This document shows, one piece after another, positions 3,001-54,252 of a stretch of DNA of 64,000 nucleotides. Numbering within the stretch: position 1 is the stretch's first letter; every line of letters begins with the position of its first letter. A program made the translations under genes and the position numbers. Below the pieces are notes generated by a model. It made no database searches. It saw only the letters and a list, made by a program, of their open reading frames with translations, and was not told the DNA's origin. Where the stretch lies: IMG/VR virus record IMGVR_UViG_3300029554_000001; one strand, written 5' to 3'. This stretch comes from a virus.

Positions 3001-6000
3001 ATTGATAAAAGAGAGCAAGCTATTATTGGTAGTTATTTAACTGAGTATCAGAAATTAATAAATTATCAAACCCAATTAAATAATTTAAAGAAGCAACAAG
3101 AAGAATTAGCCCAAAATGGTGTCGGTTATACTAGTGAAGAATCACAAAAACTTGAACAACAAATATCGACCATGCAATCTACAGTTAATCTTCAAAAGAA
3201 GATTATGGCGGAAAAGAATCTTGATTATAAGGTTTTAAACACACCTCGGGAAGCTGACAAAGTTGCAATAGGGAATGTTCTTTTATCTGACAAGGGTAGC
3301 AAACTTGCTACGCTGCAATGGGCTAAAATAAATGCGCTTAGTAGTAATAAGCAGAGAAAAAATGACACCAGTGTTACTACTCAGCAAAATACAGAAGCAA
3401 CAAAGGATTTAGATTTACTTTTAAGTCAATATAAAGAACTTCTAAGTCTTCAAAATTAGTTGAAAGAGTCTAACATTAAAGCTGAAAGTTTAACAGGGGA
3501 CAAGCAAGCCGCTCAACAAAATGCTTCTGCTAATTTGCAAGAAAGAATTGATAAACTTCGTGAAATTTCTACTCTTACTGGTGAAATAACAGATGAGAAG
3601 AGAATTGAAGAAGAAATTACAAAAGCCACTTATTTAACTGAGAGTGAAAGAGCTAAGAAATTAAATACTCTTAGAACTACAGTAGGAGAAGCAAATCAAA
3701 AGAATTTAGACATTGACACTAAATATGCTCAAGCGGCAAGAAATAATAACCCAACTCTTCAAAATACTTTAACTGGTTATTATAGAAACCTTGAAGAACA
3801 AGGTAGAATTGAAAGAGAAATTGCTAGAGCAGAAAATAAAGGAATGTCTTTAACTGGAAATGCGGCTATTGAAAATAAATCCTTTATTCATTCTCTGCAA
3901 AGTTAGAAAAACAATTTAGCAAACCAATATAAATATGACGAGCAAAAGAAAACTTTAAATGGTATTGAATTAACAGAAGAGCAAATTAACAAATTAGAAC
4001 AAGAAAGAACTCGTATCTTAAACAACAACCAAATTGAGATGGATAGAGTTGGAAATTCTGTTAATCAAACTAAAGGCTTTTTAACTCAACTTAAGGATAA
4101 TTTTAAAGATAGCTTTTCTCAAATTGGAATGGCTATAATGCAAATATTTTCTTTCCAGTAGATATAGAAAGTATTTAATGATTTTATTTCTGCTACTGAA
4201 AGACTTGACTAGAAAATGGTTGACCTTCAAATTGCAAGTGGTTATACCAAGAGTAATATTCACGATATGATGCTTGAGTTTAATGACTTGGCAAAAGAAA
4301 TCGGTAAAACTACTGAAGAAATTGCTGAAGCTGCAAACGATTGGCTTCGTGCTGGTTACGAAGGACAAGAAGCATCTCAATTAACTAATGCTTCTATGCA
4401 ATTAAGTACGCTTGGTATGATTAATAGCGCTGATGCTACGAGTTATCTGATTAGTGTGCTTAAAGGATGGAAGTTAGAAGCAACCGAAATTCAAGGAGTA
4501 GTGGACAAATTAACTGCTGTTGACATGCAGGCCGCTATAAGTGCTGGTGATTTGGCAGAAGCTATGTCTCGTGCTAGTAATTCTGCACAAATGGCTGGTA
4601 CAAGTTTAGATAGATATATTGCGTATCTTACCACTATTACAGATGTAACTCAAAAGAGCGCTGCGTCTGTTGGTGAATCTATGAAAACGGTTTATGCACG
4701 TTATTAGAACATTGCCGCTGGTAAATTTGTAGCTGCTGAGTCTGATATTGAAAGCGAGAATTATAATGCCGATGAATGGGCTAACTTAAATGATGTTGAA
4801 AAAGCTCTTGGTGCGTTGGGTATTAATATTAGAGATTCTGTATCTAGCTTTAGAGACTTTGATGATATTATGGATGAAATTGCTAGCAAGTGGAATACAT
4901 ATACAGACGTTCAAAAATCTGGTATTGCTACTTCTCTGGCTGGTGTGAGACAGCGTGAAAACTTGCTTACCTTGTTTGAAAACTGGGACGCTGTTGAAAA
5001 ATTTGAAGAAATTTCTACTAATGCATATGGCACTGCTATTGAAAAAATGAAGTCTTATACTGATAGTGTTGAAGCTGCCAAGAATAGAGTTACTGTTGCT
5101 CTTGAAAAGTGGGTTTTAGCTCTTAATCAGTCTGATACTTTGATTTGGTTCTATAATGCTGTTGCAGACGTTTCTGATAATCTTGTAGCATGGGCGGGAG
5201 CTATTTTACTAGCAACTGCTGCAATGAACTCTGTTGGTTTTGGAAGTACAATGCAAAATGCATGGTCTAAATTTGTTTCATCTTGTATTAATGTTTCTAT
5301 GAAACTTGATAAAATGAATATTTCAACTCAGGGATATTTTACTCAAGGCGGAAGACAAAGTTTAGGAGAATCTTTAAAAGCAAATTATACTGAATCGTTT
5401 AATGTGGCTCTTAAAGAGAATTACGCAAAAAGCTTAACTAATACTATTAATAGTTTAGATAATTTAACTGATAGTACTAAAAAGATATTGGTTGATGGTT
5501 ATGTTCCAATGCAAAATTCCATGCTTAATTACAATACTAAAATAAAAGAAAATATTGCCAGTATTTTAAAAAACACTGCGCTTACCGACGAGTAGGCGGC
5601 ATTACAGCTACGAGAAAATTTGGCTGACCAAAACAATGCATGGGTAGATGCTATGTTGTCTACTATAGATTAGGAAGAGCTTCGTTTAAGGACTGAACAA
5701 ATCACTCAAGGTCAAAGAAGCTTGACTGATGAAGAAAAGCTTTAGATAGCCACAGAAGAATTGGCAAGAAGACGTAATGATGCGGCAGTCAGAACTGTTG
5801 CAGATGATTTAGAAGGCTCTTCTAGGATAAGTCCTCAAAGAGCGGCTTTAAAAGGTGGCGCAACCATGGTTGGGTCTGGTCTTGGTGCTTTAGCTGGTAT
5901 GGCTATTGGAGAAAATCTTCTTGGTGGTGGTTGGGCAACTTCTTTAGGAACCATGATAGGTATGGGTATTGGTGGAAAAGCTACTTCCACTATGGCTCTT

Positions 6001-9000
6001 GCATTTGCTGACGCTATGGCGGCAGGAGGTTCTATTTTTACTGGTATGAAGGCAGGCGCAATGGCTTTAGGTCCTGTTCTCGGTATTGGAGTTGCGGCTT
6101 TAGCTATTGGGGCTGGTTATGCTTTGTATAAAAAGCACCAACAAAAAATGATAGAAGAAGCTAAAACTGCTTTTACAGATGCAGCAGAAGAATTAACTAA
6201 TGCCAAATCTTTACAAGCTACCGCTTAGAAATATGATGAACTTTCTAAGGGTGTTGATTCTTTGGGAAGAAATGTTTCTCTTACTGATGAAGAATACGAA
6301 AAATTCCTTGATTATAGTAATCAATTAGTAGAAGCATTTCCTGAATTACGTATTCGTACAGATGAAAATGGCAACGCTATTGCTGATATGGGTAATGAAA
6401 TGGAAACCACTTCTGATAAGGTTAAGGGGTTAATAGATTCTTTACAAACATTGGCAGATTAGAGAATGGTTATGGGTTCTGATGGTGAAAAAGTATTACA
6501 AGATACTTTAGATACTGCGGCTCAGGAATATAAAGATGCGCTTTCAGATTTGAATAATGCAAGGGCTGACAGGGCTAATAATTATACCGATGTAATGGCT
6601 TTACAACAACAAAGAGACCAAGCACAAGAAGAATTAGACAAAGCCCGTGAAGATTACAATGATGCCGAAATAAAACAGCTTCAAGATGAATTAATCAATG
6701 CACAAAATAAATTGGCTGGATATCAGCAAAGACAAGCAAACGGAGAAAAGAATTTAGGTAGTGTCATAGTTCTTGCGCAAGATAATGTTGATAGAGCTAA
6801 AAGAGCTTATGAAAATAAAGTTGGACATCAAGATATTAATACCCTTGAAAATCAAGTTGCTGACCTTGACGTTAAGATAAAAGAAGCTCAAGCTGAAAAT
6901 AACGCTGGTGAAGCTGCTGTTGATGCAGCTCAAAATGCTTATGATAGAGCTATTATAAGTGCTAAAGAAACATTAAGTGAATCTGGTAAGGCTTATGCAA
7001 GACTTATTGGGGCTTATGAAGATGTTGATGATGTAACCAGCAACTTGTTTGATAATGCTATTGGTTCTATTGATGCTGTTGATAAAGCTGGAAATGCCTT
7101 GTCTCCTGAAATGTATAAGCAAAAAGTTAGAGACATGATTAATTCTGTCAATGGTCTTGTTTCTGATGAAACTGTAAAAACTTTAATTGAAGCAACAGAT
7201 GAAAAAATAAACACTGATATGACTGTTGCAGATGCTAATAAAGCTAGAACACAATTAAAGAAATATCTTGAAGATACTTTCCCGAATATTGAAGATGATG
7301 AAAATTTGATGAAAATTGTGGTTGGAATTGGATTTGAAGTTGTTGATGGTGAAATTGTTGATAAATAGAACATAGCACAACAATTTAAAGACAAGTATGG
7401 ATTTAGTAAACAACCACGGGGTATTACAGAGGATTATTTTAATTCTCTTACTGTTTCTCAAGGTCAAAAACTGTTTAATTGGATGGGTACAGATGGTTAT
7501 TTCTCTAATGGAGTGAATACAAATCAAAGCATTGTTAATTCTATGTTTTACGCAGATAGAGAAACTCCAACTAAATTAACTGGTGAAAATGGGTTAATTA
7601 ATAAATATCTTGAAGATATGAATGCTATGAATGACCTTGAAGCTAAGATTGATGAAGTTTTTAACGGTGATAAATACGATTTAAAGAACTCTAATCTTAA
7701 CGAACTTTTCGCCGAATTTCCTGAAACTGTTAGGAACAGTTTAAGTCAAGTATAGGAAGCCCTTAATAATGGAGACATTGATAAAAATGGATTAGCTGAT
7801 TAGCTGAGGGCGACTTATGATAATGCTTATTCTACTGTTTTGGACGAAGGTAAAAAGATTGCTGAAACTATGTCTTCACAATATTTTTCTGATTTGGAAT
7901 TACCTGACGGCTATATCAAATCTTGGTCTGAATTAAAAGAAGCTTTTTCTGATGTTTCTAGTATTTTTGACCAACTTGCTGATGCAAGAGAGGAAATGGC
8001 CTCTTCTGGCAGATTAAGTATCGAAACCACTCTTGAACTTCTCTCTACAAATGCTGATTATATTAATGCTTTGGAGATTGAGGGAGAGAATATTGTGCTT
8101 AAAACTGACGCCGAAGAAATAATGAATAAAGTTAGACTTTAGACTATTGCTGTTAGTTTACAAGCACAGATTCAAGAAGATAATTTAAGAGTTGCACAAT
8201 TAAAGAATCAACTTCAAACTTTAATGTTGTCTGGTACTTATATTGAAACTTCTGATGCTTTGGTTGAATCTACCAAGGCTAAAGTTTATGCTTATGATTC
8301 AGAAGGAGAAGCTCTTGCTAATTTAGCTAATCAATATTTAACGGCTGCGAATGCTGCTTCTTTGTTGAATAGAGCCCAAAATGGAGAAACAGTAGATATA
8401 GGCAGTGTAAAAGCTGTTAAAACTATTAAGTACACTCCTACAGATAAGTCGGCTTTGGAAAGTAAGACTATTGATTTATCTGGTAATACTGAAGCTCTGC
8501 AAAAATAGATTGAAGTTACCAAGTCTGAGTTGAAAAGTTTGGTTGGTAGTTTTGACGAAGTTGTTACTACAGATAAAACTGGCAAGGTTACTGGTTATGA
8601 TGTTAAATTTAAGACCCATACTGATAAAGATGGAAATATTCATTATGATGAAGGTAATATTGCTATGCGTGAGCACTTGCTTTATAGTGTTTAGGACATG
8701 CTTGAGTCTGGTAATTTAGCTAAAGCGTTCAAGAAAGGTTATACAAAACCAATAAAGAGTGCTGGCAAAGCTGCGAAAGATACTAAAGATAAAGTTCTTG
8801 ACCTTCTCAAAGCTTATGATTCTTTAATCGACAAAGAATGGGAAGCAATGAAAGTATTTGATGAAAATACTTTAACTCCTACTGGATATACCCAATATTT
8901 TGAAAAGAAGAGAGCAAGTCTTGAAAAATTAGCGGCTTATTATGAAGGTATGATGCAAAATACCAATCTCACAGAAGAAGAGAGATTAGATGCAGAAAAG

Positions 9001-10001
9001 AATTATATTGAGAATCAAAAAGCTATTAATAACCTTGATGATGAAGAGGTTGAAGACAAGTATAAGATTCTTGAATTATATGGAGCTTCTATTAATTCTT
9101 TGATTTTGATGAAGCAGCAATTAGTTAAGACTTCTGACACATATGAAGAACTTCTTGAGAATCAGAAAGACCTTAATAATCTGCTTCAAGACGAGATTGA
9201 TTTGCGTAAAGAGGTTTCTGAATGGCAACAGAAGTTAAGTGACCGTGAACTTGATTATGTAAAAGGAAGCGCGTGGAGTAATAGTTCTGCTTATGATGCA
9301 GCTATGAACGCTTCTCTTGCAGAAATTGAAAAGTAGATTGAAGCTACTAAAGCTTCTATTCAATTTAATTTTAGTCAAGCTGTTTATGGTTATATGACTG
9401 AAGGTATGAGTGAAATGGAAGCTCGTGCTCATGTTGCATTTGGTAATAGTGATTATTCCAAGGCATATCGTGAAGCACAGCAAGAATATCTTGATTTAAT
9501 TGACTCTAAGACTGAATATGTTGTTAATAGAACTTCTGCACAAATTGAAGAACTTTCTAATAAGCTACAACTTCTTGAAGATTCCAAACCTCAAGAGTGG
9601 ATTAGAATTTCTGATATTGAAAGCTACTATGCAAGTAGGAGCACTTTATTGCAAAATCAAGTTAGTGTTTATCAGAAGGCGTTGGAAGATGTGTCTGATT
9701 TAACTGATGAACAAATTAAAGACCTTGTTGATGGCTTAAATGAAGCTACGGTTGCTTTACATGAAGCTAAGATAAATGCTTTGGAAGATAAGACCGAGCT
9801 TCAAGAAAAGCAATATGATGCAATTGTTTATAGAATTAATCTTTATAAGGATGAGCTTCAGGATGCTATTGATGCTATTGAAAAGGCTTATGAAGATGAG
9901 ATAAAACCCTTGGAAGATGCCAATAAAGAGCGTCAAAGAGCTATAGAACTTGAAAATCTTCTCTTGGCTAAAAAGAACGCCAATAAAGAGAAGGAGAGAG
10001 T
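1..10001 (+). CDS. tail tape measure protein, exon 1 (5' partial, continues upstream of window; TAG read as sense)
   Basis: Frame 1 is open from nt 1 to the splice site with no TAA or TGA and 27 in-frame TAG (hand count). TP901-type tape-measure core at ~4300-4700 (AGYEGQEASQLTNASMQLSTLGMINSADATSYLISVLKGW...DLAEAMSRASNSAQMAGTSLD). Gly-rich hydrophobic segments at ~5850-6130. Long coiled-coil Q/E/K-rich stretches. Confidence 0.8.
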
Positions 10002-11394
10002 GAACCAAAATATGCTCTCTATAAAGATGGCTATATAAGTCAAACGCCAGAGATGGCAGAGACTTAGGAAAGACTTAATATGATTTGGTTTTATTTTAGG
10101 GAAAGGAGGAAATATGGGTTTAATTTATCAAGCTTATTTTAAAACTAATGGCAAAAGTTATATTGGATAGACAAGTAGAAATAATTTAGAAGACAGAAAA
10201 AAAGAACATTTACAAGCTTCTAAAGATAAGCCTTATCTTTTTTATAATGCTATCAGAAAATATGGTTGGAACGACATTGAATGGAGTGTTTTAGAAGAAT
10301 GCGATAATGAAGAATTAAATGAGAAAGAAATTTTTTATATAAAGAAATATAACACTTATATAGGATTTGATAATTGCAATGGTTATAATATGACAGAACG
10401 GGGAGATTGTATTAATCATTGCATGTTTGATACTAAAGATAAAATAAACGAATTGTTAGAAGAATATAAAAAATGTGGTAGTGTAAATGAATTAGCTAAA
10501 AAGCATGATTGCGGCTACACTGTCATTTATAATATTTTAACTGGTATTATTTGTTCCGAATTTACTGGTTTCTATTATAACGATAAAACCTTTTTGAAAA
10601 AATATATGAAAAAAGGCTTGAAATATACTAATGAACAAATAGATGAAGTAATTCAAAGAAATAAAAAAGGAGAATCTAATTCTTATATTTCAGAACAAAT
10701 GAATGTTCCTATTAAATGGGTTCAAGATATTTTATCGGGACGAATTATGTCAAAAAGAACTGGAATTAAACATATCACAAGAAATGAAAGACAATTATAT
10801 AATCCTGTAAATTCAAAGCGTTCTAAAGAAGAAGTTTTAAAGATGGTTGAAGATTATTATACAAACAAGCTATCGTCAAAAAAGATTTGTGAGAAATATA
10901 ATATTGTCTCTGCTCGTTTGAACGAAATCCTATCTGGTAAAACATGGAGTGCAATAACTCATTTAACAGAAGAGGATTACAAAGAAGAAAAATTAAAACG
11001 TAATCCTCCTAAAGAAAAAGCGAAAAAGAAATCCCTTTATTTATATACAGATAAGGATATTTTAGACATGGTAAATTTGTATAAGTTAGGTTATTCTAAA
11101 AAAGAGATAGCTGAAAAATATAATACAACAGAAGGATATATTTACAAAATTGTCACTGGACAAAGAAGAAACGATATAACTCATATTAAATAAATCATAT
11201 TAAGAATCCTAAGAGACTGTAATGGTTTTTATAGTAATATAAAGACCTTCGCCATCGTATTGTTGAAATATACAATATAAGATACAGTCCGAACTTACGA
11301 TATAATCTTGAAATAATAATGAAACGTAAGAGATAGGAAGAAACTCCTATCCGCTATTATTTTAATTAATAATAGTCATTAAAGTAACAGAATG
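10002..11394 (+). mobile_element. group I intron carrying a GIY-YIG homing endonuclease gene, inserted in the tape measure gene
   Basis: P1: exon AGAGAGU (9995-10001) pairs with GCUCUCU (10014-10020), with a U.G pair at the cut. P10: 10010-10013 pairs with exon-2 GUAU (11395-11398). R-like AAGAGACTGTAA (11211-11222) and S-like AAGATACAGTCC (11279-11290) give GACTGT/ACAGTC as P7. Terminal G at 11394. Splicing restores the frame (...KEKERV|YRKGLGWVFESNP...); exon lengths sum to a multiple of 3. Confidence 0.7.
10114..11193 (+). CDS. GIY-YIG homing endonuclease (intron-encoded, one in-frame TAG)
   Basis: RBS AAAGGAGGA then ATG. N-terminus is MGLIYQAYFKTNGKSYIG[TAG]TSRNNLEDRKKEH...YNAIRKYGW...E..YI..YN, the GIY-YIG module. 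The C-terminus has repeated HTH-like modules (ILTGIICSEFTG, ILSGRIMSKRTG, ILSGKTWSAITH, IVTGQRRNDITH). TAA stop. Confidence 0.85.
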
Positions 11395-12778
11395 GTATAG
11401 AAAAGGCCTTGGTTGGGTGTTCGAATCCAACCCAACAAAATTGCGTGAAGCTCAAAAAGACCTTGACGATTTCTATAAACAAGACCGTCTTGATGACCTC
11501 AACAATACGAAAGATGCAGAGCAACAAATTCTCCAAGACCGTATAGATGCTTGGGACAAATATCTTGAGCAACTTGAATGGGATTATAAGGAATATGAAC
11601 GTCTCGAGAATGAACGCATATTGAAAGAGCTTATGAATGCGAACTCCGAAGAAGAGATTCGTGCTCGTATTACAGCGGATATGCAGAAGTTTAATTCTAA
11701 TGTTCAATAGAACTACAAGAATTATACTACGATATTCCAAGACAACTTACTTACGCCTTATCGTCAAGCCAATGAACAATTAGCAGAATTGCGTAGACAA
11801 AGACTTGAATTATTAGACACTTCTGATTTCTATAATAAGAACAATAATCAAAATGGGTATATTAAAGAAGATGACCTGAACACTTATGATTTCTCTGACC
11901 TTGACATGAATACAGACTATGCTGCAAAAATGTTGGCTGCAAGGGATGAAGGAGAATTTAAGAAATGGGCTGCTTACCGTGATGAAAAAGCTCGTAGAAT
12001 GGGCATTACTCTTGATGGTAGTGGTTATGGTTATGATAAAGCTGGTAACAAGTTTAGATATCAAAGTAATGATGAACTTTATCAGCAATGGCTGTCTGGA
12101 CAGGGAAGGACCAATTCTTCTAATAGTACTCCAAATAGAGTTACTTCTTCTTCAAGTAATTCCAGTAGTAGTTCTAGTAGAAATAATTCTGGTAGTAGTT
12201 CAAGTGGGTCTAATAAAAACACTCCTACAATTGTTAAGCCCTCTCTAGGTGGTAGCGCAAGCAGTTCTTCTTGGGGCGGAAGTGACATTGGTACAGCAAT
12301 GCTCAATGCCAAGACTTCTGAGTAGTTCTGGCGTTTGGCAGACCAAAGAACTGCTAAAATTAAGCAAGCGAAAGCTGCTGGACAAGACACAAGTAAATGG
12401 CCTACGAACCAACAATTGTATGACCAGTGGTTGAAGTTGCATCCTAACACTAACAAATCTGGATTTACTGTAACTCCTTATGCTACTGGTATTGAAGAAG
12501 GACCAGTAACTTATACAGGACTTGCGATGTTACATGGTACGCCTTCTAAGCCTGAGTATGTCTTGAATAGTGACCAAGCTTATAATTTGTTACGCAATAT
12601 GGCAACCACGAGACTTCCTGAGATGGAACGCACTGGAACTGACAATAATTGTGGTACACAGTATATTGTTCAAGGTGATGTTGTACTTGAAGGAGTTAAT
12701 GACCCTGCCAAGTTCTGGAGTGGAGTAACTACAGCAATGGGGTCAAGGTGGAATGTAACTCGTAAAACCAGAGGATAA
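11395..12778 (+). CDS. tail tape measure protein, exon 2 (TAG read as sense)
   Basis: Frame 2 is open from the splice acceptor to TAA at 12776-12778, with 2 in-frame TAG (11708, 12323). Ser-rich linker at ~12100-12290. Typical TMP C-terminus (...LAMLHGTPSKPEYVLNSDQAYNLL...). Confidence 0.75.
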
Positions 12779-12917: not shown

Positions 12918-12950
12918 TAGACGAAAAAATAACGAAAGGAGTTAAAAGAA

Positions 12951-15900
12951 ATGATATATAAAGCATCTTCGCTAAGTCCAAACTTGAATGAAATAGATAT
13001 TTTATCTACCACTCGGAACCCATTTTAGGCTTAGGTTAACACCCTTGGAACATCTGTAAAAGCTTATTCTATCAATTTTTTGTCGGGAGATGGCGCTACA
13101 ATGATTCTTAATTAGCCTTCTCAAGCACTAGGACAAGAAATTAGGAATAAAGAGTAGCTTTCTTTAAATTTAACCGTGGATTCTTCTGGTAATTTTGTTA
13201 CTTTTAAAGAAGAAGGGAAAAAAGGATTATCAACGACAGCTTAGTGTGAAGAAAATTAGTCTTTTCAAAACGGAAAAGATTATCAATGGAATATTAGGAT
13301 GTATGAAAATCATTCTCCAAGGACAACAGACGAAGACCCAACAACTTTAGTTTGCTCTGGTTTTACCGTTGGTTCTACTACTTCTGTTATTTGGGTGGAT
13401 TTAAGTGGCATTAGTAGCGAAGAAACTAAGAAATTAGTTAAAGACTAGCTTAAATATGATAGATGGATAGAGATATCTGCTTCAAGTAAAAACGATGGCA
13501 TGATGGCTATCACTCTTCCAAACGAAGATAATTTGGCTTATCCTACTACTTGGCCTTATAGAGAACGTAGACAAATTAACTGGGTTTATACAGATTTAGG
13601 TTGGGATAAAGATGTTATAAAAATTGAACTCACTGAATCTTTTACATATAATTATACAAATGGTAAAACATTTACTCTTTATAACGTTTCTGATTAGCAT
13701 ACTTTAAATAATTTTTATGTCGAGCCCAATGATGATATTGAATTAGGCAATTATATTTCGTTAAATAGCGATGATAGTGTAAAAAGGAAAATTATTGGAT
13801 ATGGGCAAGAAACTGGCGAAATTAGATTATAGGAAGGTTTTGTGACCGTTCCTAAAAATGGAGATACTTATAAACTTTGGACAAAAGATTTGACTTCATC
13901 TTCTTCGCAATTTTCGCAAAAAACTTACCACAGTTCTGCCGAGAGAAAAGTAGGTGGAGCTCCTATTACGAATCCAAATTTTAAAATTATGACTTCTTAT
14001 TGGAATAGTGAAGCAGACCATCAAATTTTTGTTCAGCCAAATATAAATATTAAATCAGATACTTTAAACCCTCCTCAAATTGTTTGGGAAAATGGCGTGA
14101 GGTTAAATATAACACAAAAAATTAGTACATTAGGACAATATGTTGCAGGGAAGAAAACTGATATTACTTTTAATAAACTTGATAATACTCAATGGTTGTT
14201 AAAAGGAAATTGCAAAATTGCAACTCAAAGTACAGGTGATATTTAGCAAATAATTGTTCCTCAAACTGATTACACAGTTTATACTGATTTTATGGATTCT
14301 ATTCCAAATGCTGTTTTATATGCTCGACAAGCGCCAACATTAGGGATTAAATATAAAGATTACCGTGAATTGGATTTGGAAAATATACCGTATATAAGTA
14401 TTGACTAGTCTGTTCCTGCTCCATGGAGAGATGTGGCTTTTTTGGGTACATGGGATTCTATAAATAATGTTGAAATTAAATATTATCATTATTATTTATA
14501 TTCGATTGATAATTATAATAACGAAACTTTAATTGCTGAATCTGATGATATTTACGACTCTTCTCTTGAATGGAATTTTAAAGGTTTTGAGACAAACAAC
14601 TTCTATAAAGTTAGAATAACCATTCATGATAAATATGGTAAAGCATATAGTGAAGAAAATACTTTTTATATTGAATATGCAGTTTATAGCTCTGTAGTTC
14701 CTTTGGCTAATTCTTTGATTTGTGATGAACAAGCCATAAAACTTGAAGTAGTTAGTCCTGTTTATGTTATTTCTACAGATAAAGGCACAGAAAAAACAAT
14801 TACTTCGAATGATGTGTATTTAAGTAGTAATTCAAAATATTATTACGCAGACACAACTTCTGGAAGGGTGTTAAATTACACTCAAGTTGCAGATGCAAAC
14901 AACACCCCCATTTAGATTCCAGAGGTGTTTTCTTTTTTTACAAGATTTAGATTTCCATATATAACTTCTGATAACAAGGTTGGTTTCTTTAATAACATTA
15001 CAGGAACTGATTTAAAAACATTAATGGAAATTGCTCATGCAAGTTATACTCAATTTTATTTAAGTTAGGTAGACACTGTTCTTTATAATGAACTTTATTC
15101 TACTTTATATACAAGACAAGACAATCAAGCTCTTGCAGATGCAATTCCACTTTATCCTGACGGAATTTCTATTGTTTTGTATTCAGATGAAACTACTCCT
15201 ATAAAAGACAGTGATGGTAAAATTGTGTATTATACTTTAAGTAGTTATACAATGTCTTCCACTAAAATTGTCGTAGAAGAGAAAATTGATACTCCTGTTA
15301 CATCTTTTGACCATTATGTTTATTATGATAAGGTTACTAAAGATGAAATTGGTTCGTCAACTTCTTTAAATAATGGATAGCTTGATAGACGTTCGATTTA
15401 TCTTTCTATTTTCTCAGATGAAAATTCTGCGGATGAATACAAAAAATTACTTTCATATAATAAAGAAACAGGAGAACTTGTTATTGAAAGTAGTTTAAAG
15501 AGCGATAGTTATAATAATCTTAATTATAAAGCATACACTCTTAAGTCTGCAAATAATTATATTCCACTGCCATCTTCTACATCAGGTGATATATCTCTTG
15601 GCGGAGATGTTTATACTGTAAAAGTTGGAGGATTGGATTTACTTCTTGTTGACGAAAAAAATAAAATAATTCGTAAAAATCCTAATATGCTTAAAATGCA
15701 AGTATTTAAAAATGGTTCAAATGAACCTTTGGCTTGTTTTAATGGGGGCAAATCTACCAGTTATGATATACAAAGCATGTTAAGTAATATGACTGTTCCT
15801 GATAAATTTGGTTTCGCTCTTCAATACAAATATACAGATTCTAACAAAACTACATTAAAATATATGCTTGTAGAAAAATTTAAAGAAGAACCTGATTACA

Positions 15901-16970
15901 TGGATTAGAATATGGTTTATATTTTAACTAAAGATATTGTTTTTGCTCCTTTCGGGAAAGAAGCGAAAACTTATTATGTTGGTCAATATAAATATATTGT
16001 TAATGCAGATGGTTCTGCTGATTGGATTCTTTAGGTTGATACAGAATATTTGTACCTTGATGAAAGCGGAGATTACAAAGATGAAGAGGGCAAAGCTATT
16101 GATGTTGTAATTGATAAAGATTTGACTGAAGGAGAATCTACTGGTGGTGGTTAGACTTATACTTCTATTGCTACAAATTAGTATGATACTATTTTAGCTA
16201 ATGCTATAGCGGCAACAAAAGAAAATAGAATTTTTACTACAAATGAATATAATGAAGCGTTGGCAAATTATTTATCAGAACATAGCGAGGCTTACATCGG
16301 CTTTGCAATAAACGAAGCTGGAAATTCTATGTATTCTGAAAATGGGGTAATACAAAGATATAAGATTAACTCTTATACAGGAAATGTGTTAACTATAGAA
16401 AAAACCCTTCCTTACACTGGAACAATTTATGCGTATAGGATTTATTCTCGCAATTCAGAGACGGGGAATTATACATATGAAATAGCTTTGACTGTTGGAC
16501 TTACAGACAAAGGGATTGTTCCCAAAACATCTTTAGTGTATCTTTCAGTGACGAATGGCACAACAACATTAATAGATAAAAAGAAAATTTTAACCTACAC
16601 CGCCGATAAAAAATTAACTATTGAGGGTGGAGTTTCTATTTTACTCTCTGATTCTGACCTTAATTCTTTAACTTATACTGCTTATAATTATATCAGCAAT
16701 ACTTACACTGAATTGGGGAAAACTGGTGATGGTAAAATTATTGCAAGTGACCCAACAGGAGGTACTGTTAGTGGGCCTGTTAAATATCGTTGGGGGCCCA
16801 AAAACGGGTCAGGAAAAGAAGAATCAGATTATATTTGGATGCCTGATTCTCAAGCTGTTAAACAAACTAATATGGCTTAGATTTCTTAGAGATGGTTTGA
16901 TTTTAATTTAACAGTAGATAATTCTAAAGAAGTTCCTGTTAATTGTTCTATTGTTTTAGTTACAGAATAA
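12951..16970 (+). CDS. large virion structural protein, 1339 codons (function unknown; tail tip or receptor-binding candidate)
   Basis: RBS AAAGGAG then ATG 12951. A single frame links six ORF-track fragments (13500, 13842, 14433, 15177, 15633, 16260). 20 in-frame TAG by hand count, no TAA or TGA until TAA at 16968-16970. Confidence 0.75.
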
Positions 16971-19261: not shown

Positions 19262-19594
19262 ATGATAAATCAAAATAACAATTATGACCAATATGCAGAT
19301 GAAATGCTGAATAGAATACTTTAGTGCGTTACAGCAGAAATTAAAAGAACCTCACCGAGAATTGAAAGTGCTACGGTGACAAATGTAAATAGTGATGGTA
19401 CTGTGGATGTTATTTTGCCACGGGAACCTGAAACAGAATTTACAAGAATTCAAAATCAAACTCCTTTTGAATTAAGAGAAGGAGATTCTGTTGAAATAAT
19501 GCTTAAAAAAGGAAGTTTTAATAATTGCTGGGTTATGGCAAAACATGGAACAACAAAACGTTTTGGTGTCGATGATAATGGACTAACCGATTAA
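19262..19594 (+). CDS. small tail/baseplate protein (XkdR/DUF2577-like spike, tentative)
   Basis: ATG 19262 immediately after the upstream TGA. One in-frame TAG at 19322. The C-terminal part matches ORF-track 19376..19594. TAA stop. Confidence 0.6.
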
Positions 19595-19612
19595 AAAATT
19601 TTTGCCAAGTAC

Positions 19613-19641
19613 TTGACAAGATGAAAAAACTATGCTATATT
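19613..19641 (+). promoter_or_regulatory. sigma70/sigmaA-type promoter at the structural-to-replication module boundary
   Basis: TTGACA (19613-19618), 17 nt, TATATT (19636-19641). Confidence 0.65.
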
Positions 19642-19693
19642 TTATTCACAACCAAGGTAGGTTGATTTTTTTGAATAATTAGGAGATAGTAAA

Positions 19694-19879
19694 ATGGTTA
19701 ATAATCTTGCGTGTGAAGATTGTCGTTTTTTGGTAAAGTGCTCGGCGTATGCAAAGCTTAAGCCTTTTCTTGAGGACGCTCGAAGAGATTTGGGAGTTAC
19801 TTTGACGTTTGAGGCTTGTAATGATTACAAGTCTATTGACGATGATGACAATGACAACAATGATGAAAATGAAAATTAA
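19694..19879 (+). CDS. small Cys-containing protein with poly-acidic C-terminal tail
   Basis: RBS TAGGAG then ATG. 61 aa with four Cys (C7, C10, C16, C42), ending DDDDNDNNDENEN. First gene after the promoter. Confidence 0.6.
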   Translation: MVNNLACEDCRFLVKCSAYAKLKPFLEDARRDLGVTLTFEACNDYKSIDDDDNDNNDENEN

Positions 19880-19914
19880 AAATTAAAAGACAAAATTAAA
19901 GGAGTACAAAAATA

Positions 19915-25735: not shown

Positions 25736-27774
25736 TGGAAAAATTACTATGGGAGACAAAGTTTTAGAATAACTTTGATGATGAATATGATTTTCTTGAA
25801 ACTATTTTAAAAAGCTATGATATTTAGGATGTAAAGAGTTTTCTTCATCCTGTAAAAAACAAGGTCGTTAATGACCCCTTCCAAATGAAAAACATGGATA
25901 AAGCTGTATAGATTTTTCATGATAATATTAATACTGATAAGAAAATTGCAATTAAAGTGGACCCAGATACGGATGGCTTGACAAGTAGTGTTTTAATGAG
26001 TAAAATTATTAAATATTTTAATCCAGAGGCAAAGATAGAATATATTTTTAGTTTTAATAAAGAGCACGGACTAACCTATAAAGCATTAAGCGAATATTCA
26101 AAAGATGAAATCGGTTTAATTATTATTCCAGATGCTTCAATGATTTGCAAAGATGCAATTCAAATTATTAAAAATTACAATTGTCCTATCATTGTATTAG
26201 ACCACCACTTAGTTGAAATTGAATATTTAGACACTAATACAGGTAAATGGATTTCAAAAAATGAAGCAGACGAGATTAAAGAAAAAGAGTCTGACAGAAT
26301 TAAAGAGGATAGTTATGTTAATTATTGTGTAGCTGTAAATGATACTGATGGACACTATCCCAATCCTACTTTATCTGGTGTTGGTGTAGTTCGCAAATTT
26401 GGCGAAGCTTATTGTGAAAAGTATCACTGTAGTGATAGTTGGCTTGATGAATATCTTGATTTAGTTTCTCTTGGTATTATTGCAGATAGTATGGATTTAA
26501 GAGATTTAGAAACAAGATGGTATGTACTTGAGGGTTTAAAGGTTGAAAATCAAAAGAATGATTTTCTTAATGAACTTCAAGAAAGAATGGCTGATGAAAT
26601 TCATTTTGGTAGAACTATTACAAATGTCGGTTGGGTACTTGCTCCAAGAATTAATGGTGTAGTACGTTATGGTACAGAAAAAGAGCAAAGAGATTTATTT
26701 AGAGCTATGGTTGGGGAACAAGAAACTGTTATTTATCAACCGAGAAGAAAAAAAGCTACCGACCCGAAACCTCTTCCAGAAGAACACACACTTCAGTGGG
26801 AGATGGCGAGAGTAGCTAACAATGTAAAGTCTCGTCAAGATACAGCCGTTCGTAAATTTATGGAGCAAATTGTTGATAAAATTGACAAACAGGGACTAGA
26901 TAAAAATACTATTTTATTTGTCGATTGTACCGACATAGTTGATAAAAAATCTGTTACTGGATTAGTAGCTAATAAGATTGCTTCGAAATATTTGCGTCCA
27001 GTGGTGCTTCTTAAGGAAAGGAGTGCCTCAGAATTCGGTGGCTCCTGTCGCGGATATGATAAAGGAAATATTAAAAACTTGAAGGAGTTTTTAGAGCAAA
27101 CTGGACTTATAAGTTGTGCTGGACATGAAAATGCTGCTGGTGTATTTCTTAAAAAGAAAAATGTTGATGAAGTAATTGAAAAGTGTAACGAAATGCTTCC
27201 TCTTGACCAACTTAAAACTATTTATCCAGTTGATTGGGAAATTCCCGCTAATGAAATGCAAATAAGATTTGTAAAAGAAGTAGCTGAAAATTATGAAGTG
27301 TGGGGTAATACTGTTCCTACTCCTACTTTTGCAATTACAAATCTTCATATAAATGCCAGTCAAATTAATGGCTATGGCGAAACTAAGAGTTTTATTAGAT
27401 TTCAGCATAACGGTATTACTTATATTAAAAAGTATTGTCCTGCTACAGAATTTGATATGATGACTCTTAAGGATAGACATACCTTTGGCGTTAACAAAAA
27501 GAATTTGGTAATGAATTTAATTTGCCAATTCCAGTTAGAGTCTTGGGAAGATAAGATTTATCCAGAAGTTAAAATTTTATATTATGATGTTATGGAGGAT
27601 AAAACAAATGAGACTTCTGATTTAAAAAGTAAGACCAAATCTGACGCTATTCTTAATTCTAAAACGACTTCCTTAAATGCAAAATCTACTACAGATTTTG
27701 ATTGGGGTGAAATTGAAAAGCCTAAGAAGAAAAGAGTAATGTTAGATAAAGATTTAGAAGATTTGGATTTTTAA
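25735..27774 (+). CDS. RecJ-like DHH-family single-strand exonuclease
   Basis: ATG overlaps the primase TAA (TAATG). Three TAG within the first 74 codons join it to ORF-track 25957..27774. DHH motifs IAIKVDPDTDG and IIVLDHH. Confidence 0.75.
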
Positions 27775-27883: not shown

Positions 27884-29506
27884 ATGGTTTTTTATAAGCC
27901 TGTTACAAATGAATAGGCATCAAAAATAGCAAAAGAATTAAAATTCTTTTCTACGCATAACCATACAGAAGTAAGCAATTTCAGATTGCGAGATTGCATA
28001 ATAAAAATACCCGACCTTATTAATCGTTCTATTGAATTAGGATATAATGGAGTGTGTTGTACAGACCACGAAGCTTTATCTGCTCATGTGCGATTTATTA
28101 GGCGTTACAAAGAAATTAAAGAAAATAAAGAAAAATATGACAAATTAAAAGTAGACAAAACAGAAGAAGAAATAGAATTAGAACTAAATAAAGATGAAAA
28201 TAAATCAATTAAAAAGAATTTAAAATATTATAAGAATTTTGATGGATTTAAAATTGGTTTAGGAAATGAAATTTATTTAGTAGATAGACCTATCGAAGAT
28301 GAAAAAATTAGCAAGTTTTTTCACTTTATTTTAATTGCAAAAGATAAAAAGGGTTATGAACAAATAAAAAGAATTTCTTCTGATAGCGCTTGGAAAAATT
28401 GGTATCGTTCTGGAATAATGGAAAGAGTTCCGACTTATAAAGATGAACTTGAGTCTATTATTGGGGATGAAAAAGGTCATATTATAGCACAATCTGCGTG
28501 TTTAGGTTCAGAATTGGATAATTTAATTCTTGAATATTTAAATACGAACGATAAAAGTATTAAACAAAAAATTGACGCTTTTATTAAATGGTGTATAAAA
28601 ATATTCGGAAAAGAAAATTTTTATTTGGAAATTCAACCTTGTGTAATTAAACAAGACAAAGATGGAAACAATTTACCACATGAACAAGCAATGGTAAATC
28701 AATTTATGTTTGTTTTAAGTAAAGCTTATGGATTGAAAGTCATTTGTAGTACTGATAGCCATTATTTAACAAAAAATGATGCAAAAATTCATGAGGCATA
28801 TTTAAAAGCAGATGACAATGAAAAATCTCGTAACAGAGAAGTGGCTAGTTTTTATGAAACGACTTATATGTTTTCTATAAGTGAACTAGTAGAAACGCTG
28901 TCATATCATTTAACAATTGACCAAATTAAAGAAGCTTTAATAAATACTCAACGTATTTATGATAGTATTGAAGTCTTTGATTTATATCACTCCACTATTG
29001 TTCCTACTGATAAAAAGATTCCTCCATTTAAGGTAAAGCATATTTTTAAAGATTGGTATGATAAATATGAATATTTAAAAAAGTATGCCGAATCTGAGGA
29101 TAAACAAGACCAGTATTTGCTTTATTTGGTAGAACAAGGGTTTGAAAAGAAAAAACAATGGGGAGATTCCTCTTATCATTTTGCCACTTATGATGAAAAT
29201 GGTAAAATTATAGAAGAACATGATAAAATAGTAACTCAAGAAGAAAAAATTGCTCGTATTAATGAAGAGTTTAGTAGCTTTTGGCAAATTTCTGAGCGTT
29301 TAAATCAAAAATTATCTGCATATTATGTACTTGTTAGAGGATTGGTACATGAAGTTATGTGGAAAGTTTCTTTTGTTGGTGTTGCGCGTGGTTCAGCAGG
29401 GGGTAGTTATATTTGCTATCTTTCTGAAATTACTCAAATTAATCCTCTAAAATATGACTTGCCTTTCTGGAGACATAGTTCTCCTTTAAGACCAGAGTTG
29501 CCAGAT
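27884..29506 (+). CDS. DNA polymerase III alpha-type replicase, exon 1 (PHP domain and start of palm)
   Basis: ATG 27884, TAG at codon 11. PHP motifs HNHTEVSNF and CTDHEAL. GSAGGSYICYLSEITQINPL. Ends ...WRHSSPLRPELPD, the first half of the conserved ...PE..MPDIDIDF motif. Confidence 0.8.
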
Positions 29507-30209
29507 TAAATTATTCTAACATTTATTTAAATATTTTAATGAAAGGGGGAATTATGAGCGTAGAAATAATAAAAGAAAAAGGAAAATATATTTTTAATCA
29601 AGAAGCTATTGATTGTGTTGTTAAAAAGTATCAAGAACATAAAGGGTCTGTTACAATATAGAAAGAATTAAAAACAGAGTATAATATAGATGTTAGTATT
29701 CATGGTATTTATTTAATTTTACATAATAGAGTAGAAATTAGAGATGACCGTGAATAGGCTTTAAAATATACTTGCGATGATAATTTCTTTAAAGAAATAG
29801 ATACAGAAGAAAAAGCTTATTGGTTATAAATAGGTTTTAAGATTAGTAACTTTACTTTATAAAGACGCTACTATTTATTTGGATAGAAAATATGAAAAAT
29901 ATTTAAAAATGTTAGAAATTAGTCGAGAACAGCAGTAATGTTGTTTGTTAAGTCCTGTAAACCTAAATTGCAATAGGGTGTGCAGAAATGTGCTAACGGT
30001 GAAAGCCTACAGTTAAAATAACCATGGTAATACCGTGCCAAGCTTATATGTAAATATATGAAGGTGTAACGACTAGCCCAAAGGGGCGTAGGGTGGAGAA
30101 GCTGCCACTCGAAAGACGGATACCCTAATAGTTCGGCTAAGGGTAAAAAGATAGTCTACTCCGACTCTGAATAGAGTGTTAAAGTATTAGGAAACTAACG
30201 GTAGTAAGG
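29507..30209 (+). mobile_element. group I intron in the DNA polymerase gene, with a decayed LAGLIDADG-type ORF
   Basis: The exon ends in U (29506) and the intron ends in G (30209). Joining gives ...RPELPD|IDVDSEALKRPLIFQNMHDYYG..., completing the Pol III alpha motif. R-like GTAACGACTAGCC (30066-30078) and S-like AAGATAGTCTAC (30148-30159) give GACTA/TAGTC as P7. A GC-richer core with several GAAA loops spans 29940-30209. Confidence 0.7.
29554..29829 (+). pseudogene. truncated LAGLIDADG-type homing endonuclease remnant
   Basis: 91 codons with 2 TAG, ending ...NFFKEIDTEEKAYWL then TAA, exactly where the LAGLIDADG helix (AYWLGF..ADG) should begin. A C-terminal-like piece (LYKDATIYLDRKYEKYLKMLEISREQQ) follows in another frame at ~29868-29938. 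Confidence 0.5.
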
Positions 30210-32798
30210 ATTGATGTAGATAGTGAGGCTTTAAAACGACCACTTATTTTCCAAAATATGCATGATTATTATGGAGATGAGAATGTTTTAAATACTCTTA
30301 CTTTAAAAACAGAGGGAACAAAATCTACAATTTTAGTGTGTGCTAAAGGGTTTGGAATAAATAATGATGATGCACAACATTTGGCAGATTTGGTTCCTTT
30401 TGAAAGAGGTTCAAACTGGTCATTAAAAGATTGTTTTTACGGGAATGAAGAAAATGGTAGAATGCCTGTAAAAGAATTTATTAATGAAGTAAATAAGTAC
30501 GAAGGGTTGAAAGATACTCTTTTTAAGATTGAAGGACTTATTTGTGGTAGGTCTATTCATGCTTCGGCATCTTATATTTTTGATGCTGGATATATTGTTC
30601 AAAATAGCAAAATGAGAGCGCCGAATGGTACAACTATCACTGCCTATAATATGGAAGATTCAGATTATATGGGTGGTTTGAAGATAGACACTTTGACTAT
30701 TGAAATGCTAGATAAGTTACATACAGCAATAGATTTGCTAATTGAAGCAAAAATAATTGAAGATAAAGGAAGTTATAAAGCTAATTATGATACTTATCTT
30801 CATCCTGATGTGCTTGATTATAATGATTATAAAATGTGGAATTTGTTAGACAAAAACCAAATTTTAGATGCATTTCAATTTGATAGTGCAATGGGACAAC
30901 AAGTTATTACAAAAACTCAACCTCGTTCTATGTTAGAACTTTCTACAGCTAATAGCTTAATGAGACTTATGGCGCAAGAAGGTGCAACAGAAGCCCCTAT
31001 GGATACTTATCGTCGTTATAAAAATAATATTCAATTATGGTATAACGAAATGAAAGAAAATAAATTATCCAACCATGAGCAAGAAATTATGAAGAAACAT
31101 TTAGGTAAACTTTATGGGGTTGCTGATACTCAGGAAAGTATTATGGAAATGAGTATGGACCCTGAAATAAGCGGGTTTGATGTAGTTCTTGCGAATAAGC
31201 TTAGAAAATCGGTGGCCAAAAAAAAGAAAGATTTGATTGCTGCTGTTCATGAAAAATTTTACAAAAAGGGCGCAGAATTAGGCACTTCAAAAGAACTGCT
31301 TAATTATGTTTGGGATGTACAAATTAAAAGACAGCTCGGATATTCTTTTTCAAAAAACCATTGTATGCCCTATACAGCCATTTGTCTTCAGTGTATGAAC
31401 ATTGTACAAAAATATGGGGCGTTATATTGGAATTGCGCTTGTTTAATTGTTAATAGTGGAAGTACAGATGAAGAAAATGTTGATAACAATAGTGGCGTTA
31501 ACTACGGTAGAATTGCTAAAGCTATGGGCAATATGATTAATGCTGGCATTAAAATTTCTTTACCTGATATTAATCGTGCTCGTTTTGGTTTTTACCCTGA
31601 CAAAGACAGCAATGAAATTATTTATGGCTTAAGACCTATTCAGGGATTAGGAGGGAAAATAGCTAAAGCAATCGTAGATAACAGACCTTATGCCTCAGTT
31701 GAAGATTTTTATTCTAAAATGCAAGAATTTAAAGAGTCTGCAAAAGAGAATAAGTTTGGCGATACGGCTATGATTTCTCTTATCAAAGCGCGGTGTTTTG
31801 ATAATCTTGAGAAAAAAGATAGAAGAGCAATTATGGAAGGCTTTATTAGGATTATTTCAAGTCCTGTTAAGTCTCTTAGTATGCCAAATATAGAAGATTT
31901 GGCAAATCTTGATTTATTAACTGAAAATCAAAAAAAGTTTGAATTAAGATTATATAGATTTAGAAACTATGTTTTCCAGAAAAAATTCTTTTATAAACAA
32001 ATAGGTAAAAGTGCAAGTACAGCTTATTATATCCTTGAAAATAAATTTGCATGGCCATTCTTTGAAAAATATTTCCTTAATGACATGATTGATAAAAAAG
32101 ATTACGACTGGAGCGATGAGGGACAAAGAGTTGTTAAAAGAGGTAGTTTAGACCGAGTTTTTAATAAACTCATGGCAGATTTTAAAGATGATGTCTTAAG
32201 TGACCCTAAAATGCTTGCGGCTGTAAATGAAGCAAAATTTAAGATGGTATGGGATGAAAAAGCGACGGGGAATCTGTCTAAATGGGAAATGGATTCTATG
32301 TGTTATTATTATCATTCTCATGAGTTGTCAAAAGTAAATAAAGAAAAATATAATATAATTAATTTTGAGGATTTGCCTCCTGATGGACCAGTTGTTCAAA
32401 CTTACCTGTATAGAGGACAAGAAAAGAGTCGTTTTGCATTAAGTAGGATTTGTGGAACTGTATTGGATAAAAATAAAAATAAGAATACTGTTGATTTATT
32501 AACTCCAACAGGGGTAGTAACTTTAAAATTTTATAAAGGTGCTTTTAATTTTTACGATAGGCAATTGTCGAAAGATAATGAAGATGGAACAAAGACCGTA
32601 ATTGAAAAGTCTTGGTTTTCCAGAGGTAATAAGTTATTGATTACTGGTTATAGACGTGATACACAATTTGTTCCTCGTAAATATTCTGACAGTTTATATA
32701 AACATTCTGTTCAATTAATTAAAAGTATTGATGATAATGGCGAGTTAGTTTTAACATCGGATAGAGCGGATAAAGAAAGGGAGGAAAATGAGTTCTGA
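30210..32798 (+). CDS. DNA polymerase III alpha-type replicase, exon 2
   Basis: Starts IDVDSEALKRP... in the frame of ORF-track 30258..32798. Long Pol III alpha-like body. No TAG. TGA stop overlapping the next gene. Confidence 0.8.
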   Translation: MDVDSEALKRPLIFQNMHDYYGDENVLNTLTLKTEGTKSTILVCAKGFGINNDDAQHLADLVPFERGSNWSLKDCFYGNEENGRMPVKEFINEVNKYEGLKDTLFKIEGLICGRSIHASASYIFDAGYIVQNSKMRAPNGTTITAYNMEDSDYMGGLKIDTLTIEMLDKLHTAIDLLIEAKIIEDKGSYKANYDTYLHPDVLDYNDYKMWNLLDKNQILDAFQFDSAMGQQVITKTQPRSMLELSTANSLMRLMAQEGATEAPMDTYRRYKNNIQLWYNEMKENKLSNHEQEIMKKHLGKLYGVADTQESIMEMSMDPEISGFDVVLANKLRKSVAKKKKDLIAAVHEKFYKKGAELGTSKELLNYVWDVQIKRQLGYSFSKNHCMPYTAICLQCMNIVQKYGALYWNCACLIVNSGSTDEENVDNNSGVNYGRIAKAMGNMINAGIKISLPDINRARFGFYPDKDSNEIIYGLRPIQGLGGKIAKAIVDNRPYASVEDFYSKMQEFKESAKENKFGDTAMISLIKARCFDNLEKKDRRAIMEGFIRIISSPVKSLSMPNIEDLANLDLLTENQKKFELRLYRFRNYVFQKKFFYKQIGKSASTAYYILENKFAWPFFEKYFLNDMIDKKDYDWSDEGQRVVKRGSLDRVFNKLMADFKDDVLSDPKMLAAVNEAKFKMVWDEKATGNLSKWEMDSMCYYYHSHELSKVNKEKYNIINFEDLPPDGPVVQTYLYRGQEKSRFALSRICGTVLDKNKNKNTVDLLTPTGVVTLKFYKGAFNFYDRQLSKDNEDGTKTVIEKSWFSRGNKLLITGYRRDTQFVPRKYSDSLYKHSVQLIKSIDDNGELVLTSDRADKEREENEF

Positions 32799-54214: not shown

Positions 54215-54252
54215 AATCATAGAGATTTACTTATTAAGAAAGGAAGTGGAAA

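Follow-up and report, generated by a model that had tools for sequence, protein, structure and literature searches.

The window analysed here, a 64,000 nt stretch of viral DNA (IMG/VR record IMGVR_UViG_3300029554_000001), carries on its + strand a gene predicted to encode a Pol III alpha/YorL-like replicative polymerase, which is interrupted by an insert at positions 29507–30209. The insert is very probably a self-splicing phage group I intron of the IA type that holds the remnants of a LAGLIDADG endonuclease gene. An earlier interpretation of this DNA, made from the letters alone (the sequence-only reading), had placed a group I intron here, splitting the polymerase inside its catalytic PDxDxD motif. 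The gene parts are as follows (a slash in the sequences below marks an insertion point or junction).

27884–29506, + strand: polymerase exon 1, 541 codons; PHP domain and start of the palm; one in-frame TAG (27914); ends ...RPELPD
29507–30209, + strand: very probable group I intron, 703 nt; first base after exon U29506, last base G30209 (omega-G)
30210–32798, + strand: polymerase exon 2, 862 codons plus TGA; begins IDVDSEALKRPL

The + strand open reading frame (ORF) that ends at 29509 closes with ...LPFWRHSSPLRPELPD followed by TAA, exon 1 finishing on CCA GAT (Pro-Asp) at 29506, and the polymerase frame resumes on the same strand at 30210 with IDVDSEALKRPL (ATT GAT GTA GAT). The gene in fact begins at ATG 27884. 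The mechanical ORF list has it starting 34 codons further downstream, having missed this ATG because of the in-frame TAG at 27914. In one relative (L004), a called gene of 541 aa ends at the position equivalent to the end of exon 1. Joining 29506 to 30210 yields one protein of 1403 aa (...RPELPD/IDVDSE...) with PHP, DNA_pol3_alpha (Pfam; residues 451–703, across the junction at 541/542), finger and HHH domains, and with the intron removed the reading frame is colinear with uninterrupted homologues. A stretch of 280 aa over the join aligns in a single piece to about 870 uninterrupted phage polymerases, and RPELPD/IDVDSE is ungapped at the junction when compared with Geobacillus phage GR1, SPbeta YorL and a Sextaecvirus polymerase (RIELPDIDLDSE, RPDLPDIDIDTE and RPELADIDLDSE, respectively), fixing the junction exactly at 29506/30210. 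Alignment to solved Pol III alpha chains shows that the aspartates flanking the junction correspond to residues 463 and 465 of T. aquaticus and 401 and 403 of E. coli. A recent structural preprint gives Asp401, Asp403 and Asp555 as the catalytic carboxylates of E. coli Pol III alpha, so the intron sits between the first two catalytic aspartates. The gap-free alignment and the Asp401/Asp403 mapping thus bear out the location proposed earlier, and the proposed borders (a U before the 5′ site, a terminal G) agree with U29506 and G30209.

The Rfam model RF00028 (Intron_gpI) matches 29927–30179 over its full length in a scan of 1.1 kb (46.8 bits, E 1.5e-10). The model has no room for two extra hairpins between P3 and P4, nor for the long P7.1/P7.2 insert. 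Scans of the whole window, in both gathering and E-value modes, returned four tRNAs only, and a scan of relatives L006 and L009 (4.9 kb) gave no match; the larger Rfam scans missed the intron because of their speed filters and not because it is absent. When the 5 kb polymerase region was compared by megablast with a phage collection, the only matches were of 57–64 nt at the 3′ end of the intron, 88–91% identical to terminase-gene introns of Twort-like Staphylococcus phages. The structural elements assigned to the intron are listed below.

29504–29509, + strand: P1 5′ strand, GAU/UAA with the 5′ splice site; pairs with 29919–29924; recovered in the mini-construct fold
29514–29520, + strand: 5′ arm (UUCUAAC) of the stem closing the ORF insertion; exact complement of 29911–29917
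29911–29917, + strand: 3′ arm (GUUAGAA) of the same stem; pairs with 29514–29520
29919–29924, + strand: guide sequence UUAGUC, from the mini-construct fold and ORF-less relatives
29927–29946, + strand: P2, 8 bp with a GUAA tetraloop; the endonuclease ORF terminates at UAA 29936–29938 in the loop
29952–29958, + strand: P3 5′ strand, GUCC(U)GU; partner 30116–30121
29962–29993, + strand: two extra hairpins between P3 and P4 (29962–29977 and 29980–29993), recurrent in the phage intron class P3-AAC-hairpin-GGUGU-hairpin-GCUA-P4
29996–30065, + strand: P4-P5-P5a-P6-P6a domain, from the Rfam alignment; compensatory changes in P6a
30071–30156, + strand: P7 (30071–30075 with 30152–30156), enclosing P7.1, P7.2, the P3 3′ strand and P8
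30076–30087, 30091–30110 and 30122–30144, + strand: P7.1, P7.2 and P8, respectively, from Rfam, folding and pair counts
30161–30209, + strand: P9 three-way junction (30161–30163 with 30199–30201; P9 30164–30177; P9.1 30187–30198), with the 3′ tail to G30209

A secondary structure model of 78 pairs was built for P2, P3, the two extra hairpins, P4, P5/5a, P6/6a, P7, P7.1, P7.2, P8 and the P9 three-way junction, and was counted on seven distinct relatives (546 cells). Standard pairs occupy 98.4% of the cells, against 28–46% when the partners are slid by 1–3 columns. Five pairs show compensatory changes (P6a and P7.1 hold two each, P7.2 one); the slid versions show none. The window itself forms 77 of the 78 modelled pairs, its ribozyme is near-identical to those of relatives with an intact endonuclease, and all seven relatives end in ...AAGG, consistent with an omega-G. 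This conserved pairing, together with the RF00028 match (significant although below the gathering score), supports the group I identity claimed by the sequence-only reading, and the GACTA and TAGTC elements it had pointed out turn out to be the two strands of P7 (30071–30075 and 30152–30156). The modelled P7.1 and P7.2 hairpins separate P7 from the 3′ strand of P3, which places the intron in subgroup IA, where it is putatively IA2-like.

Thermodynamic folding alone did not settle P3, and the Rfam alignment puts its 5′ strand at AUGUGCUA, directly before P4. A pattern scan of IMG/VR for the P4′/P6/P7 consensus recovered more than 120 phage introns, many of which have the layout P3-AAC-hairpin-GGUGU-hairpin-GCUA-P4. 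At least 40 phage group I introns with this unusual two-hairpin insert (P3-AAC-hairpin-GGUGU-hairpin-GCUAACGGUG) are found at IMG/VR loci L024–L143. Among 40 such introns, 33 form six or more contiguous pairs joining the 8 nt that precede AAC to the 9 nt that follow GAAG, upstream of P8; the mean contiguous run over these 40 introns of the same architecture is 6.5 bp, compared to 3.96 in shuffles, and the sequences covary. This class-wide covariation fixes P3 at 29952–29958 with 30116–30121, and the Rfam placement was rejected, as the alternative strand both pairs better and covaries across the class.

The internal guide sequence is UUAGUC at 29919–29924, the 3′ strand of P1. It was recognised because three ORF-less relatives (L014, L016 and L017) show P1 as a plain hairpin, their introns having the 5′ end GAU/UAA-AUUCA-UUAGUC. 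The pairs are G29504-C29924, A29505-U29923, U29506-G29922 (the splice-site wobble), U29507-A29921, A29508-U29920 and A29509-U29919. In the ORF-containing forms the endonuclease ORF is inserted in the P1 loop, and the stem closing this insertion is kept in ORF-containing relatives and missing from ORF-less ones; a mini-construct fold recovered both P1 and the closing stem. The Twort intron presumably has a GUAA-capped arrangement at the position equivalent to P2. The two guide candidates offered earlier do not hold. GTTTG (29943–29947) forms the 3′ side of P2, the stem with the GUAA cap. GTCTG (29642–29646) lies within the ORF and is unconserved: relatives sharing the exon read GGTTCAATA and GGCTCAATT there.

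The remains of the endonuclease gene, inserted in the P1 loop, are as follows.

29542–29549, + strand: Shine-Dalgarno sequence AAAGGGGG of the endonuclease ORF; the start position is kept as ATG or GTG in relatives
29554–29829, + strand: N-terminal LAGLIDADG remnant, 91 codons plus TAA; in-frame TAG at 29659 and 29755 read as sense
29826–29827, + strand: junction of the 524 nt deletion, from alignments to relatives; residues ~94–264 lost, including both LAGLIDADG motifs
29828–29938, + strand: C-terminal remnant, 36 codons plus TAA, with TAG at 29831; out of frame with the N-terminal part

The ORF from ATG 29554 matches PHROG 4645 (‘endonuclease’; profile positions 44–113 of 308) and is 94% identical to residues 1–93 of the intact protein of relative L012 (tblastn). 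It ends ...EEKAYWL and then TAA, at the point where relatives go on with GFLYADGY, the first LAGLIDADG motif. The missing 524 nt equal 3n + 2, shifting the frame so that TAA 29827–29829 follows AYWL and the ORF stops where the LAGLIDADG helix should start. Having neither motif, the window ORF is a remnant and not a family member. The C-terminal remnant corresponds to residues 265–302 of the L012 protein (92% identity), and its final codons overlap the guide sequence and P2. Both the abrupt stop at EEKAYWL and an out-of-frame C-terminal fragment had been noticed from the letters alone. Of the three apparent in-frame stops, the TAA is a real stop, and TAG 29659 and TAG 29755 are sense codons. 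Decay consists of one out-of-frame deletion of 524 nt, with no build-up of stops, and the gene is less decayed than first read. No second copy of the endonuclease gene occurs in the 64 kb window. Near-identity of the flanks to those of L011 and L012 marks the deletion as recent. An origin by recombination between a pair of TATTGGT repeats was considered and dropped, the nearest relatives showing only TGGnnA or 1 nt microhomology.

A database search with the ORF gave short homologues, one of which continues ...EKAYWLGFMYTDGY. Among relatives, the same polymerase site is found in the following states.

L011 and L012 (contigs of 182 and 221 kb; exons 97–100% identical to the window): the same intron, 1226–1228 nt, with an intact 302-aa ORF
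L013 and L006: the same intron with an intact ORF
L004: a 1-base deletion in an A-run, with a frameshift at EEK/AYWLGF
The window: 524 nt missing relative to L012
L014, L016 and L017: an ORF-less intron of 296–298 nt
L010: intron-less; 98% amino-acid identity

The intact ORFs, found in four relatives, encode 302 aa with a double motif (WLGFLYADGY and FIRGIIDGDGS). The intact ORF passes the Pfam LAGLIDADG_3 model (PF14528; 25.8 bits, cut-off 22.5) and has no match at E ≤ 1 among PDB sequences. The frameshift of L004 and the ORF-less forms indicate that decay of the endonuclease is ongoing in this clade. The ORF-less form may instead be the ancestral state and never have lost an ORF. Close gut-phage relatives thus provide empty, intact, frameshifted, internally deleted and ORF-less alleles of one site, a clean data set on the homing cycle. 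The series, with its intact ORFs, supports the earlier view of a LAGLIDADG gene late in that cycle, and an intein or split-gene arrangement, either of which would have spoken against an intron, was seen in none of these relatives.

The sequence around the insertion site also varies. In L010 (positions 3298–3321), 8 of 24 nt differ from window 29495–29506 plus 30210–30221 (CCCGAC/ATCGACCTCGATTCAGAG; the L010-type site is also given as CCCGAC/ATCGACCTCGAT), against about 88% identity elsewhere, and a C stands in place of the U needed for P1. From this comparison, the L010 site could be resistant to cleavage, or the intron-bearing alleles could reflect co-conversion. Locus L144 (IMG/VR UViG_3300042923_000619) holds at 9395–9420 the exact 26 nt insertion-site sequence GAGTTACCAGAT/ATTGATGTTGATAG in an uninterrupted polymerase gene of only ~60% nucleotide identity, and this sequence match makes it a potential naive homing target. 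The sites of L010 and L144 are both candidate substrates for cleavage by the endonuclease.

Several points weigh against the interpretation of 29507–30209 as a self-splicing intron with a deleted endonuclease gene. Splicing is a prediction from sequence. The RF00028 score of 46.8 bits falls short, by a small amount, of the curated gathering score of 50. The seven relatives represent about two lineages, giving few independent compensatory events, and the structure model was derived from those same seven sequences. P3 has 6 bp with a bulged U and is weaker here than in its class, the exon portion of P1 is only 3 bp, and the 3′ exon (AUUGAU) was found to make no convincing P10 with the bases preceding G29922. 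A 29-mer over the deletion junction occurs in no JGI metagenome or IMG/VR contig, and the deletion allele therefore rests on this single assembly. The missing 29-mer favours the idea, very unlikely overall, that the deletion is an assembly or consensus artefact and that the real phage has an intact endonuclease like that of L011 and L012, its nearest relatives, which are 97–100% identical in the exons and intact. However, there is no long flanking repeat able to collapse an assembly, only the TGGnnA microhomology, and the L004 frameshift and ORF-less forms are independent degenerate alleles.

It is very unlikely that the 91-codon ORF at 29554–29829 was retained as a functional small protein (e.g., a DNA- or RNA-binding maturase or a regulator), selected after loss of the nuclease. 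LAGLIDADG proteins can serve as maturases (review on phage introns). The Shine-Dalgarno sequence and ATG are intact, and the 94% identity to the N-terminus of the intact protein would fit such a role, but near-identity to the L011 and L012 introns points to a recent deletion, after which an intact stub is expected without selection. The deletion has also taken the core fold, where LAGLIDADG maturase activity resides. The family's ORF-less introns in relatives, with the polymerase frame restored across the same junction, suggest, but do not prove, that the intron can do without a protein of its own, and the search for an independent domain gave no family match, all Pfam hits being below the cut-off. 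Production of the polymerase as two separately translated fragments, or removal of the insert as an intein, in either case without RNA splicing, is extremely improbable. Exon 1 does end in an in-frame TAA, the exon 2 frame has no ATG before the one at 30258, and split and intein-containing DnaE genes occur in bacteria. However, the cut separates the equivalents of Asp401 and Asp403, IDVDSE... has neither start codon nor ribosome-binding site, and translation from ATG 30258 would drop catalytic residues. The insert is not open in frame with the exons and so cannot be an intein. It is occupied by a conserved ribozyme with compensatory changes, and relatives are either contiguous or carry the 296–298 nt ORF-less insert at the same phosphodiester.

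Under the preferred reading, that of a group I intron, the polymerase pre-mRNA would fold into a ribozyme in which the GAU at the exon end pairs with UUAGUC, the splice site being marked by a U-G wobble. Attack by guanosine would come after U29506, G30209 would then take the P7 pocket, and the exons would be ligated to ...RPELPD-IDVDSE..., restoring the Asp-x-Asp motif. Comparison with relatives shows that this intron formerly carried a 302-aa double-motif LAGLIDADG endonuclease in its P1 loop, and that the 524 nt out-of-frame deletion stripped both catalytic motifs, leaving the 91-codon stub and the 36-codon fragment. Its endonuclease being dead, the window copy would be unable to home by itself and would persist as a vertically inherited passenger that depends on splicing. 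Splicing of the window intron is strongly expected, because the ribozyme is intact and the catalytic motif of the polymerase is restored only by splicing. The correct polymerase product would be the single 1403-aa protein, and the intron and TAG recoding explain why a standard gene caller would fragment the polymerase, RecJ-like, tail and other genes.

Judged from its reading frames, the genome reads TAG as a sense codon, the residue probably being Gln. When TAG is taken as sense, 73 + strand ORFs merge to 57 and the coding total rises from 18,011 to 20,613 aa. There are 27 in-frame TAGs in ORF 1–10038 (>3345 aa), 20 in 12933–16970 (1345 aa) and 8 in 54238–55179, while the polymerase has one (27914) and the RecJ-like gene three within its first 60 codons (25765, 25825 and 25909). 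The DnaB, primase and helicase genes are without internal TAG and structural-looking genes have many; the nrdD-like (four) and RecJ-like (three) genes are exceptions. All three TAGs of the endonuclease remnants (29659, 29755 and 29831) are still TAG in the intact L011 and L012 ORFs, and the other relatives have CAA or CAG at these sites, except L006, with AAA (Lys) at the first and TAG at the second. In this small sample, the residue opposite TAG is Q at 3 of the 3 endonuclease sites and 1 of the 3 RecJ sites, and N, E, R or K elsewhere. The window tRNAs are Leu-UAA, Pro-UGG, Arg-CCU and Gly-UCC; no suppressor tRNA with a CUA anticodon was found in the window, which is about one third of a genome of ~180–220 kb, or in the fetched pieces of relatives. 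Three TAGs within 27 nt (35131, 35143 and 35155) lie near the end of a RecD-like helicase ORF, before TAA 35251–35253, and the C-terminus of this helicase depends on whether TAG is stop or sense at the time of expression.

For the intact endonuclease gene, the fraction TAG/(TAG + CAA + CAG) is 0.375, similar to that of structural genes (0.13–0.47), whereas the polymerase has only 0.022 (Fisher p = 0.009 for endonuclease against polymerase). This density, and an ORF that runs through the guide sequence and P2, allow the tentative and rather doubtful proposal that a code switch in mid-infection acts as a timer, and that TAG also forms a genetic-code barrier. If the timer exists, ribosomes early in infection would halt on reaching the first TAG, well away from P1 and P2, allowing the intron to fold and the polymerase mRNA to be spliced, and the endonuclease would be produced only once TAG becomes readable. 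If the barrier exists, the homing element would be confined to TAG-recoded phages even though its 26 nt target occurs in other polymerases.

Further insertions are found in related polymerase genes. L010, L016 and L017 have one at about window 30708/30709 (GGLKID/TLTIEML), directly after the equivalent of E. coli Asp555, where the window is uninterrupted; its LAGLIDADG ORF is intact in L010, and in L016 and L017 is apparently decayed or missing. The two mapped intron sites thus coincide with the three catalytic aspartates, site 1 at Asp401/Asp403 and site 2 after Asp555. L010, L014 and L016 have a LAGLIDADG-type ORF (...LLFGYLLADGYFRIRE) within the region matching window exon 1, which suggests a third insertion site. 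In L004, a relative from Logan (positions 880–2350; ~window 25950–25970, VDPDTDG), a RecJ/DHH-like gene is broken after ...IKVDCD by an element encoding a LAGLIDADG_3 protein of 344 aa, while the window RecJ-like gene is continuous there.

Elsewhere in the window, 10037–11375 (+ strand) is a candidate for a further group I intron, with a GIY-YIG endonuclease ORF (10114–11193) in a P5 loop. Exact complements occur in canonical order (P3 10052–10057/11251–11256, P4 10063–10068/11208–11213, P5 10074–10084/11194–11204, P7 11215–11220/11284–11289 and P8 11258–11277), and splicing after T10036 and G11375 would join the >3345-aa ORF in frame to ORF 11366–12778. An Rfam scan of 10950–11750 was negative, and no P6 is evident in 10037–11375. 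The complements make a further group I intron probable, and it may be the ‘first’ intron counted by the sequence-only reading. The gap at 19594–19900 was rejected as an intron, as it holds promoter-like sequence and a small ORF.

The window intron is related to the Twort and T4 td introns. The introns in the Twort terminase and orf142 genes were reportedly described by Landthaler and Shub in 1999, and the structure of a Twort ribozyme is said to have been reported by Golden and colleagues in 2005. Like the window intron, the Twort introns are phage IA-type introns with P7.1 and P7.2 in an essential, conserved phage gene, and the two share ~90% identity over ~60 nt in the P7′-P9-P9.1 region and 3′ tail. 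The host gene there is the terminase, as opposed to a DnaE-type polymerase; the Twort ORF (IepA) lies downstream of P7, directly before the P7 3′ strand, whereas the window ORF is in the P1 loop; and the two extra P3–P4 hairpins belong to the window intron. According to two papers (PMC2790892 and PMC1865063), the T4 nrdB intron carries a defunct I-TevIII that is intact in phage RB3. On that account it has, like the window intron, an endonuclease gene truncated by deletion, a ribozyme still serving an essential gene and a close relative with the intact form, and differs in its HNH-type enzyme (LAGLIDADG here), host gene and genetic-code context.

Group I introns of phages are well known from polymerase, ribonucleotide reductase and terminase genes, as are endonucleases that target codons of catalytic residues (review). 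The same review lists GIY-YIG, HNH, PD-(D/E)xK and EDxHD enzymes as the usual ones, making a LAGLIDADG enzyme the less common case. Within an incomplete coverage of the literature, no report was found of a group I intron in the DnaE-type polymerase of a phage, and no priority is claimed. In Agate phages, a TGA-recoded group I intron endonuclease lies in an early gene, and reassigned codons were proposed to delay the endonuclease to late infection (Borges et al., bioRxiv 10.1101/2021.08.26.457843). A genome of 180–220 kb and a gut origin are compatible with the large recoded clades of those authors. In both cases an intron endonuclease enriched in the reassigned codon lies in an early gene of a large recoded gut phage; the codon is TGA (Trp) in Agate and TAG (probably Gln) here, where the LAGLIDADG enzyme is already destroyed in the window. 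The idea that reassigned stops delay intron endonucleases is thus extended to a TAG-recoded phage and a LAGLIDADG enzyme.

A cyclical model of gain, degeneration and loss of homing elements was reportedly put forward by Goddard and Burt in 1999 for a yeast mitochondrial intron. The present case leaves current understanding standing; its merits are the TAG-recoded phage setting and a full natural series of the homing cycle, with all stages at one site among close relatives, in phages instead of yeast mitochondria.

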